Of a stretch of DNA of 64,000 nucleotides, positions 15,883 through 17,758 are shown in pieces. The translations under genes were made by a program, and so were the position numbers. Every line of letters begins with the position of its first letter. Position 1 is the stretch's first letter. The notes beneath the pieces are model-generated. The model worked only from the letters and a program-made list of their open reading frames with translations, made no database searches and was not told where the DNA came from. Origin of the DNA: a virus; the IMG/VR virus record IMGVR_UViG_3300032007_000018, positions 136,445 through 200,444 of that record, one strand, 5' to 3'.

Positions 15883-17175
15883 ATGGATTTTGAATATAAG
15901 CCATAGTATTAGTATCTTCATAATATATGTTTAAATGTTACCGACGCTTGTAATTTATAGTGTAAATATTGTTTTGTTGAATAGAATCCTCATTTTATGT
16001 CACTAGATACGGCTATTGCAGCAGTAGAATGGCTTCATAATAATGAAATTACTCGTAAAAAATTATTTCCTAATTATCCAGGTTCTAAAAATAAAAGTTC
16101 ATTAAATTTCTTTGGCGGGGAACCGACATTATTATGGGATGAGATTATCGTTCCAGTTACGGAATATATTAGGAAAAAAGAATATAATATTCATTTGGGG
16201 ATGACAACAAATGGGACGTTATTAAATGAAGAGCGTATTAAATGGATGAAAAAAAATAATATAGGAATTTTATTATCTATAGATGGAGACGAATATACTC
16301 AAAATTTTAATCGTCCTTGCTACAATAATAATAAAAATAGTTTTGATTTAGTAAGTAAGAATATTCCTTATATTTTACAATATTACCCAAAAACTACTTT
16401 TAGATCAACTATTTATGCACCAACTGTAGAGCACACTTTTGAAAATTATCTTTTTGCAATAAAACAAGGATTTTAGAGAATTTATTTACTGCCAGATTAT
16501 CGACATAATTGGACAGAAGAGAATAAAATAACTTTAGAATAGGAATTAGATAAAATTTTTTCTTTTATGAGTTTTTGTTTTATATAGCAATAGATGCCTA
16601 TTCATTGTACTCCTATTGAACGAGGCTTTGAAAATATTTTAAAGCATGATATAAAAGTAAAAATCAATACATATAATAAAGATAATAAGCCAGTAATTTC
16701 TAATTATAATAGATGTGGTTTAGGTACTACACTTGGTTCAATTGGATATGATGGTAGTATATATGGCTGTCAAGAGCAGACCTCAAAAACTAAAGACAAT
16801 ATATTTTACTTAGGCAATATTTTTGAGCAAGGAATTGAAAAAGAAAGACATATTAGATTATTAACAGAATATACTAAAATACATGTTCCACAGTGCGCGA
16901 ATAAAATGTTGTGTAATACGTGTCCATTAATAGGCAGTTGCGATTCAATGAAGTGTCCATCTACTGACTGGGACTTATATAAGAATTTTCATATAGACCA
17001 CGAAATACATTGTTTATGGAATATGTGGATTTTTGAAAAATGCGCATATCTAATGAAAAAGATGGTAAATGAAAATAATAAAATTTTTAAAGAATATCTT
17101 GATAAATCTTGTAATTATAATAAATATTTTACAGATAGCGGGGAGGTAATAAAAGATGCCATTAGAGGGGTGTGA
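15883..17175 (+). CDS. radical-SAM / SPASM-domain enzyme (anSME-like maturase) with about 8 in-frame TAG codons
   Basis: C-N-L-*-C-K-Y-C-F (CxxxCxxC) at the recoded N-terminus; GGEPTL motif; C-terminal CxxCxxxxxC clusters; ORFs 15997-16476 and 16594-17175 are in the same frame (711 nt apart) separated only by TAGs. Confidence 0.5.
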
Positions 17176-17758
17176 TTATTGCGCTTCTTGTGACTCTTGT
17201 GAAACCTGTGATTCTTGCGAAAACACCTGCGACACCTGTGAATCTTTTTGCGAGACTGGCGGGTAGACAAATACTGCCAATTTTTCGTGGATGCGATGTG
17301 GCTCACAGGGAGAGATTATTGGACCAGGATATTTTGATTTAACAGTGTGGAAAGATGCCATTGATACAATTAATGGAATATGGAACACCGGAGATAAGAA
17401 AAACGCAAGTGAAAATGCTATATCAAAAATAGATTTTAATTTTTTATCAGCCGCGGAATTTAATAGAGTATCATAGGCTGCTCGATGTTCAAGACAAGTT
17501 TCACAAAATGATGTTATATATGGTACTTATTTTGATGAATTAGAATCTGCTATTAATGGATTACAATATGAATCAGATCAATGTGATTCTTGTAATGACG
17601 GTTGTGACGATGGTTGTGATAAGTGTATGAAGTGTGATGTTTCTTGCAATGGTTAGGATGTTGTTTGCAATGACTACTGTTGTGACTGTTGTGACAATGA
17701 CTGCTGCGATAATGACTGCTGTGACAGTGATACTCCAGCTCCAAATCCAAGAACTTAA
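17156..17758 (+). CDS. Cys-rich repeat protein (CASCDSCETCDSCENTCDTCE ... CNDYCCDCCDNDCCDNDCCD), 3 in-frame TAG; candidate substrate or partner of the upstream radical-SAM enzyme
   Basis: ATG overlaps the rSAM gene end by about 20 nt; frame reads through 3 TAG to TAA. Confidence 0.4.

Follow-up and report, generated by a model that had tools for sequence, protein, structure and literature searches.

Why should a bacteriophage genome encode a radical S-adenosylmethionine (rSAM) enzyme of the SPASM type, a class of maturases known as producers of small bacterial peptides, in a gene that overlaps the gene of a protein with 27 cysteines (Cys) among 200 residues? The pair is located on the plus strand at positions 15883 to 17758 of the window, which is the whole 64,000-nucleotide stretch of DNA that was analyzed (positions 136,445 to 200,444 of IMG/VR virus record IMGVR_UViG_3300032007_000018) and which belongs to a large gut phage genome with an endolysin-like protein, PhoH, immunoglobulin (Ig)-repeat structural proteins, homing-endonuclease-like genes and a tRNA array. 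The best explanation of the locus as a whole, with a probability of roughly 0.6, is that the rSAM enzyme crosslinks the terminal Cys arrays of the adjacent phage protein, which is probably tail-associated. The Cys-array protein is most likely the enzyme's own substrate; its role is most likely that of a tail-associated structural accessory protein, as the tail-module context of its relatives suggests; and the product of the reaction is most likely a thioether, for which the nearest relatives of the enzyme are the only guide.

Both frames are real genes, because many full-length homologues of each are found elsewhere. The rSAM frame extends for 430 codons from ATG at 15883 to TGA at 17175, with no TAA or TGA and eight in-frame TAG (codons 8, 10, 26, 34, 198, 219, 235 and 237, starting at 15904, 15910, 15958, 15982, 16474, 16537, 16585 and 16591); the chance of so long an open frame at 27.5% GC is approximately 1e-14, and none of 20000 shuffles was open. 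The Cys-array frame extends for 200 codons from ATG at 17156 to TAA at 17758, with TAG at codons 37, 107 and 167 (starting at 17264, 17474 and 17654). Its first 20 nt are shared with the rSAM gene, whose 3' end also contains the strong ribosome-binding site of the Cys-array gene (GGAGG, 17142 to 17146, plus strand, 9-nt spacer to the ATG). This site, together with the large conserved family to which the product belongs, indicates that the frame is translated, a point on which the initial annotation had made its proposal of a modified Cys-rich product depend.

The same annotation took both genes to be amber-recoded, and TAG is indeed read as glutamine (Gln; genetic code 15) in this phage. Orthologues of both proteins on other contigs are uninterrupted by TAG; an invariant Gln aligns with TAG codon 34 of the rSAM gene and a near-invariant Gln with TAG codon 37 of the Cys-array gene; Gln is the residue most frequently found opposite the TAG codons of the rSAM gene in six rSAM orthologues; and among seven nuclease-like paralogues in the window, the conserved DGxQH motif is written with TAG in six and with Gln in the remaining one. 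Two of the 33 tRNA genes in the window have the anticodon CUA (19380 to 19455 and 19664 to 19738, both plus strand), approximately 2 kb 3' of the pair and the short gene that follows it, and suppression is required for translation of the 11 TAG codons of the two genes. The likeness of the suppressor tRNAs to the window's other tRNAs gave no decision as to their identity; alignment columns settled Gln instead. Because both genes need the phage tRNA-CUA, production of the Cys-array protein has to wait until suppression is active. Recoded codons are reported to be biased towards late genes (PMC10607447), and the distribution of TAG in the window fits this bias: the endolysin-like gene and an Ig-repeat structural gene contain TAG, and genes encoding a DUF2828 protein, a major vault protein (MVP)-like protein and Thg1 do not. 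The TAG-rich nuclease-like genes weaken the argument.

The motifs by which the enzyme had been recognized are all present. The cluster-binding CxxxCxxC motif (15949 to 15972, plus strand) reads C23-N-L-TAG-C27-K-Y-C30, with TAG as codon 26 and the three Cys invariant in orthologues; GGEPTL occupies residues 78 to 83; and the score of 49.2 bits against Pfam Radical_SAM (PF04055) exceeds the cut-off of 29.5 bits for membership. The SPASM-type auxiliary-cluster region from C278 to C377 (16714 to 17013, plus strand) contains C278-x12-G-x4-C296, C338, C344-x2-C347-x5-C353-x4-C358 and C377, which are invariant in orthologues (alignments A3 and A4). This corresponds to the SPASM pattern CX9-15GX4C ... 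CX2CX5CX3C ... C, in which seven Cys serve two auxiliary 4Fe-4S clusters, with the last-pair spacing being x4 instead of x3. Whereas the Radical_SAM profile suggested as a check in the initial annotation is matched, the window enzyme falls short of the Pfam SPASM profile (PF13186), which has no match in its C-terminal 173 aa at E values up to 1. An orthologue with 51% identity (P0044) passes the same profile with 27.1 bits versus a cut-off of 21.5, and the C-terminus of the window enzyme aligns with the SPASM part of the PapB (E 5e-6) and HxsB (E 1e-5) profiles.

Among NCBIfam profiles, the highest score is obtained with PapB (150.8 bits), followed by nif11 (107), ScfB-like (103), CcpM (100), SCIFF (93.8), QhpD (88) and anSME (72.4), and the QueE- and MoaA-type families score far lower than these peptide maturases. 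By sequence, the enzyme groups with thioether-forming peptide maturases; the earlier expectation of a maturase of ribosomally made, post-translationally modified peptides (RiPPs) is upheld to this extent, as against kinship with NrdG or QueE. Every score is far under its curated cut-off (340 bits for PapB, NF047865; 425 for SCIFF, TIGR03974; 453 for QhpD, TIGR03906; 349 for anSME, TIGR03942), and the enzyme is therefore outside all curated NCBIfam families. The closest solved structure is that of the SCIFF thioether synthase CteB (5wgg, E 5e-18). In the alignment to CteB, the first residues paired are 97 of CteB and 13 of the query, and alignments to other profiles that contain a RiPP recognition element (RRE) likewise begin at their positions 77 to 97, with the rSAM motif of the window enzyme beginning at residue 23; thus, the enzyme has no N-terminal RRE.

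More than 600 homologues of the enzyme are found at E <= 1e-20; the best 120 homologue clusters are 45-58% identical, almost all 380-440 aa in length and unnamed, and many are on contigs of 50-230 kb. Related contigs are designated here by L numbers. The orthologue encoded by L008 (5659 to 8001) has 780 aa, owing to a Hint/LAGLIDADG intein directly before the third Cys of the CxxxCxxC motif (ACNLACKY / CFVAQNP). Inteins usually occupy sites that are indispensable to the genome, and from its position at the third cluster Cys of one orthologue it may be concluded that the enzyme matters to the phage. The rSAM proteins of Erwinia jumbo phages (PHROG 1802, approximately 23% identity) were considered as members of the same system and rejected, their neighbours not being Cys-rich. 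No name for either the rSAM enzyme or the Cys-array protein was found in any source.

The second protein consists of two Cys arrays and a domain between them. The N-terminal array (residues 6 to 32, 17171 to 17251, plus strand) contains nine Cys spaced as C-x2/3-C, with D or E after each; the central domain (approximately residues 38 to 140, 17267 to 17575, plus strand) contains the conserved motifs FxWxxC, WxxAIxxIN, AAEFNRV and IYGTYF; and the C-terminal array (residues 143 to 189, 17582 to 17722, plus strand) contains 16 Cys, from QCDSCNDGCDDGCDKC through CCDCCDNDCCDNDCCD. Most Cys of the protein are followed by D or E, the arrays consist of runs of C-x3-D/E such as CASCD, CDSCE and CETCD, and both of the repeats that had been pointed out, CASCDSCETCDSCENTCDTCE and CNDYCCDCCDNDCCDNDCCD, are present. 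The window protein matches nothing in Pfam, NCBIfam (including the SCIFF peptide family TIGR03973) or PHROGs, and nothing in a sequence-profile search of the PDB; 58 members of its family gave scattered weak matches to family libraries and no family. A first search found 14 full-length homologues and an exhaustive search found 218 cluster representatives at 50% identity, and none of the members looked up bears a name. A DNA search with the region and a search with the Cys-array protein among GenBank phages matched only the neighbouring Thg1-like gene, and scans of IMG/VR with either protein or with alignment A2 gave no confirmed relative.

Family members share a layout in which C-[N/D/Q/E]-x(1-2)-C arrays flank the central domain, for a total length of 170-540 aa. 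Across 132 members, there is a median of 22 Cys per protein of approximately 210 aa, with a concentration towards both ends (first 20% and last 30% of the chain); C-x2-C (1173 cases) and C-x3-C (672 cases) are the overwhelming majority of spacings, and the residue after Cys is N, D, Q or E in approximately two thirds of cases. The central domain is modelled confidently by AlphaFold 2 (AF2) and has no known fold. In composition and spacing, the Cys arrays resemble SCIFF peptides, and the hidden Markov model of the family detects a true SCIFF peptide, GGCGECQTSCQSACKTSCTVGNQTCE, near a bacterial rSAM gene in L074. The gene at 5337 to 5528 of L074 encodes a genuine SCIFF precursor (GGCGECQTSCQSACKTSCTVGNQTCENRK) upstream of the bacterial rSAM gene.

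The functional pairing of the enzyme with the Cys-array protein is strongly supported by conserved adjacency. In every contig with a visible flank, a Cys-array member begins a few bases from the stop codon of the rSAM gene or overlaps it. This arrangement spans at least 15 independent lineages with protein identities down to approximately 30%, as determined by a neighbourhood census that covered approximately 15 lineages among the 218 family representatives. The paired lineages are the window, L001-L004, L005-L007, L008, L009, L010/L011, L012/L013, L089, L090/L091, L092, L093, L094, phage phAss-1 (L095), L096, L097 and L100. Contigs L001-L008, L089-L091, L096 and L097 were found by means of the Cys-array protein, and L009-L013, L092-L094, phAss-1 and L100 were found independently by means of the rSAM enzyme (scans with rSAM alignment A4). 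None of the approximately 70 generic bacterial rSAM/SPASM loci caught by the same scan has a Cys-array neighbour. The gene that overlaps the rSAM gene on its downstream side in L014 and L015 encodes an Ig-repeat protein of 560 aa that has nothing but the N-terminal Cys array in common with the family, and in L012, L013 and L102, the partner is composed of an array, FN3 and the family domain, in that order. The constant element beside the enzyme is thus the array, not the whole partner protein. At the other extreme, L092 (4970 to 10903) contains two tandem rSAM-partner pairs, in which partners of 524 aa with 113 Cys and 543 aa with 96 Cys have very long arrays of the CNSCNSCNTC type flanking the same central domain.

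In the published genome of the code-15 phage phAss-1 (OQ749652.1, 67828 to 69564), the rSAM gene is broken at a TAG and appears as two hypothetical proteins, and the 174-aa Cys-array gene (locus 7189 to 7713, three TAG) falls in an unannotated gap; the phAss-1 paper does not mention a radical-SAM enzyme. A second, divergent rSAM-like open reading frame with 10 TAG is directly upstream (locus 4971 to 6008), and in L096 (1695 to 5584) three successive rSAM genes, two divergent and then the orthologue, precede the Cys-array gene. The consecutive genes of L096 suggest additional modification steps in the phAss-like lineage.

The proposed association with the tail is based on smaller prophage-like genomes (L013, L015 and L102), in which the pair is within the tail module. 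The gene order in L013 is tape measure, tail proteins, rSAM, array-FN3 protein and large coiled-coil tail protein; in L015 it is Baseplate_J, Mu Gp48, rSAM, array-Ig protein and collagen/Mtd_N fibre. L102 is a prophage of the cultured anaerobe Lawsonibacter faecis NSJ-52 (NZ_JACOPQ010000005.1, approximately 273.6-284.7 kb) with an arrangement as in L013. Homology connects the C-terminal domain of the L102 protein with the window family's central domain (hhalign 95.4%, E 1.7e-8), and through this homology the window protein is tied to the tail-module proteins. Of the functions that the initial annotation had left open for the Cys-rich product (toxin, antimicrobial or structural), this comparative context favours a structural, tail-associated role.

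The rSAM enzyme and the Cys-array protein are proposed to be a phage-carried, translationally coupled unit of enzyme and substrate, the gene overlap of which would allow the substrate to be supplied co-translationally. Modification would take place in the C-[D/E/N/Q]-x(1-2)-C repeats that make up both terminal arrays. By 5'-deoxyadenosyl radical chemistry, in analogy with CteB, PapB and QhpD as the nearest characterized relatives, a hydrogen atom would be taken from a residue neighbouring a Cys and the Cys sulfur would be bonded to that carbon, and the outcome would be many short intramolecular thioether rings that convert disordered tails into rigid covalent knots, redox-inert and resistant to proteases. 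The arrays of the window protein match both known registers, the C-x3-D/E of PapA and the [N/D]-x-x-C of NxxC-type ranthipeptides, and for this reason the acceptor residue is not assignable. Since the enzyme has no RRE, recognition of the substrate would have to be direct, or via the conserved domain, or via the C-terminal extension of the enzyme. Thioethers would provide covalent rigidity where disulfides are unavailable, such as the reducing cytoplasm of an anaerobe and the gut lumen; the hosts are anaerobic Clostridia (PMC10607447), as is also seen from the L102 prophage, and such hosts fit both an oxygen-sensitive enzyme and a setting without disulfides. A bolder generalization, according to which phages of anaerobic gut Clostridia possess stapled tail proteins with tens to more than 100 thioether rings installed in modular Cys arrays by a phage rSAM enzyme, is put forward tentatively and is at present doubtful.

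Several points weigh against crosslinking of a tail-associated protein. With the enzyme under all curated cut-offs, its chemistry may not be transferred confidently from characterized relatives. It also has no RRE, the element by which PapB and CteB find their substrates (PMC12373016). AF2 yields no confident structure for the Cys arrays, which as CxxC arrays can instead bind metals. The link to tails passes through distant relatives with 30-38% identity; in the window and other large phages, the pair is not in a tail module as it is in L013, L015 and L102, being found outside the structural module among tRNA, replication and auxiliary genes, with tRNAs and genes for Thg1, DUF2828/vWA proteins, gyrase, ligase and ClpP around it. 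The Cys-array family is also absent from the cultured phages for which virion proteomics exist.

Among the alternatives, the one that survives best, though it is considered unlikely, is that the arrays bind metals or Fe-S clusters in the manner of metallothioneins or zinc knuckles, while the rSAM enzyme acts on another residue, protein or nucleic acid, or the partner protein supplies or stores Fe-S for it. Dense CxxC spacing is typical of metal sites, the enzyme is in no curated family, the region of the window is rich in genes of tRNA and RNA metabolism, and the extra tandem rSAM genes of phAss-1 and L096 imply that other rSAM chemistries occur at the locus. However, an rSAM gene is always adjacent even though array length ranges from 7 to 113 Cys and unrelated domains are joined to the arrays, the strong enrichment of N, D, Q and E after Cys matches the acceptors of ranthipeptides and not the composition of metallothionein, and modification of Cys-containing peptides is the activity of all the enzyme's closest relatives.

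Slightly less likely still is a classical RiPP or bacteriocin, in which crosslinked arrays would be cut from the central domain, acting as leader or scaffold, and released during infection as toxic or signalling peptides. The grouping of the enzyme with RiPP maturases and the SCIFF-like arrays speak for such a pathway, as do protease genes near some pairs: a ClpP-family gene is directly 3' of the pair in L005-L008, L091 and L100, and a Peptidase_C39_2 gene is approximately 4 kb upstream in L089. However, neither ClpP nor C39 is encoded near the window pair, and the pair is not accompanied by any conserved RRE, recognizable leader, dedicated protease or exporter. The partners are proteins of 170-540 aa with a conserved folded domain, their sequence places arrays on both sides of that domain instead of following a leader/core layout, and their fusions to FN3 and Ig are in prophage tail modules. 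The initial annotation, which described the pair as RiPP-like with a SCIFF- or ranthipeptide-type substrate, is supported by the conserved adjacency, by the family grouping of the enzyme and by the spacing and composition of the arrays; it is refined in that the partner is a folded protein with arrays at its ends and not a leader/core peptide, and in that the enzyme has no RRE and is in no curated family. The weakest alternative, an anSME-like oxidase that converts Cys or Ser of the arrays to formylglycine or makes another non-crosslinking change such as epimerization or methylation, is very improbable, because its points of similarity (matches of 72 and 48 bits to anSME families, E 1e-9 to an anSME structure, the lack of an RRE and at least eight conserved Cys able to ligate both auxiliary clusters fully) are outweighed by higher scores for thioether-forming maturases (150 versus 72 bits; CteB at E 5e-18 versus 1e-9) and by the lack of the sulfatase motif C/S-x-P/A-x-R in the partner protein.

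The rSAM and Cys-array genes and a third gene look like one cassette, bracketed by hairpins and a promoter-like site. At the 5' boundary, a terminator-like hairpin (15800 to 15829, plus strand; 13-bp stem followed by a T run) ends the upstream gene of 118 aa, and a sigma-70-like promoter (15815 to 15843, plus strand) consists of TTGACT, a 17-nt spacer and TG-TATAAT, with 11 of 12 matches plus an extended -10 element, as a match to consensus only. The third gene (17782 to 18078, plus strand), which has GGAGG upstream, encodes a very basic protein of 98 aa with the sequence HCSCPMC, and the hairpin search located a second terminator-like hairpin (18054 to 18092, plus strand) at the 3' end of the cassette. 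The 98-aa protein is kept only in the sub-clade of the window (L001, 8707 to 9003; L089, 10207 to 10527; L093, 9958 to 10248), with 53-63% identity and the motif NLHQYSKNKIHCSCPMCSxKxxNxG, and it has no homologues among GenBank phages. It was considered as a stand-alone RRE or third core component and rejected on account of this restriction and the lack of a match to PqqD or any other family; the 118-aa protein likewise does not match PqqD. The GC content of the rSAM gene is 0.275 (GC3 0.20) versus 0.47 in its neighbours, and the related contig L001, which is not recoded, shows a corresponding dip (6746 to 8008, 0.32 versus 0.43); the low GC content is therefore a property of the rSAM gene, independent of recoding.

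The tRNA array extends from 2724 to 22003 of the window, and a gene for a Thg1-like tRNA-His guanylyltransferase (18152 to 18988) is inside it; Thg1 is also close to the pair in L092 and L094. A DUF2828/DUF7788 vWA protein (24075 to 25619, plus strand), an 804-aa MVP-like protein with MVP_shoulder and Vault_3 (41212 to 43626, plus strand) and an SPFH/flotillin protein (56599 to 58062, plus strand) are encoded farther along. DUF2828 recurs near the rSAM pair in L001, L005, L008, L090, L093 and L094, and in L001 (12596 to 16681) it adjoins an MVP-like gene. Between DUF2828 and the rSAM gene, several large phages, such as L005 (5299 to 6684) and L090 (5157 to 6632), encode a protein of 461-491 aa with a signal peptide and coiled coils, which has no counterpart in the window. 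The seven nuclease-like paralogues, which look like homing endonucleases, consist of repeated FGxLxV...WxCxCDCGN...SCGC modules and a C-terminal DUF2726/Vsr-like nuclease domain (DGxQH...NIPLxRIPY). Six of them (1115 to 2110, 23270 to 24043, 25699 to 26595, 40494 to 41207, 43649 to 44377 on the minus strand and 48016 to 48918) have three to nine TAG each and a GC content of 0.27-0.33, and are dispersed among TAG-free genes with a GC content of 0.45-0.50; the seventh (22033 to 23169) is free of TAG. A fusion of family-2 glycosyltransferase and UDP-glucose/GDP-mannose dehydrogenase (32714 to 34414, minus strand; 566 aa) has eight TAG and a GC content of 0.29.

The pair represents a large unnamed family of phage enzymes, in which every member examined comes with a partner from a family that is itself unnamed. 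Crosslinking of the arrays, if true, would extend RiPP chemistry to full-length viral proteins and would provide a means of hardening exposed proteins in the reducing, protease-rich anaerobic gut. The bolder generalization to stapled tail proteins, if true, would reveal a kind of enzymatic structural crosslink new to viruses and the first use of RiPP-type chemistry in building a virion protein. The C-[NDQE]-x-x repeats and one RRE-independent enzyme would then also be a modular tag of possible use for protein stapling. Amber recoding concealed the pair in the published phAss-1 genome, which is a lesson for annotation, and the prophage copy in cultured Lawsonibacter faecis NSJ-52 makes the question directly testable. 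No publication linking a phage rSAM enzyme with a Cys-rich or tail protein was found in the searchable literature, and we know of no rSAM enzyme or thioether in any virion protein.

Comparison with known systems places the pair near several of them. CteB and its substrate CteA of Clostridium thermocellum (5wgg, TIGR03974/TIGR03973) share with it an rSAM core followed by SPASM with two auxiliary clusters, Clostridia as hosts, and a substrate rich in C-x2/3-C with Q, S, T, N and E; but CteB has an N-terminal RRE of approximately 95 aa that is missing from the phage enzyme, and SCIFF is a peptide of approximately 45 aa with six Cys encoded upstream of its maturase, whereas the phage partner has 200 aa, 27 Cys and a folded core and is encoded downstream. 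PapB, which acts on PapA to produce the ranthipeptide freyrasin, is the best-matching curated family (NF047865), aligning over profile positions 4-317 of 330. It joins Cys to an Asp or Glu located C-terminal to the Cys and depends on a leader peptide bound by its RRE (PMC12373016). In the phage system, unlike PapB/PapA, no leader or RRE is evident, and most family members have N or Q instead of D or E. The best functional precedent for a protein rather than a peptide as substrate is QhpD, an rSAM/SPASM enzyme that installs several intramolecular Cys-to-Asp/Glu thioethers in QhpC, the gamma subunit of quinohemoprotein amine dehydrogenase, which remains within a larger assembly; QhpC differs in being a periplasmic enzyme subunit with a leader, of non-phage origin and unrelated in sequence to the Cys-array family. 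The anSME enzymes (PDB 4k36-4k39, TIGR03942) are likewise rSAM/SPASM proteins that act on a full-length protein without an RRE, but the phage partner has no sulfatase motif, and they match the phage enzyme more weakly than thioether synthases do. The chainmail of the HK97 capsid, formed by autocatalytic Lys-Asn isopeptide crosslinks, is a functional analogy only, as another case of covalent hardening of virion proteins. Thus, the system works like the ranthipeptide/SCIFF systems or QhpD/QhpC and yet falls within none of them. Both the class of enzyme and the kind of substrate motif were already known; what is new is the phage setting, the modular substrate on the scale of a protein, the independence from an RRE and the association with tail modules.

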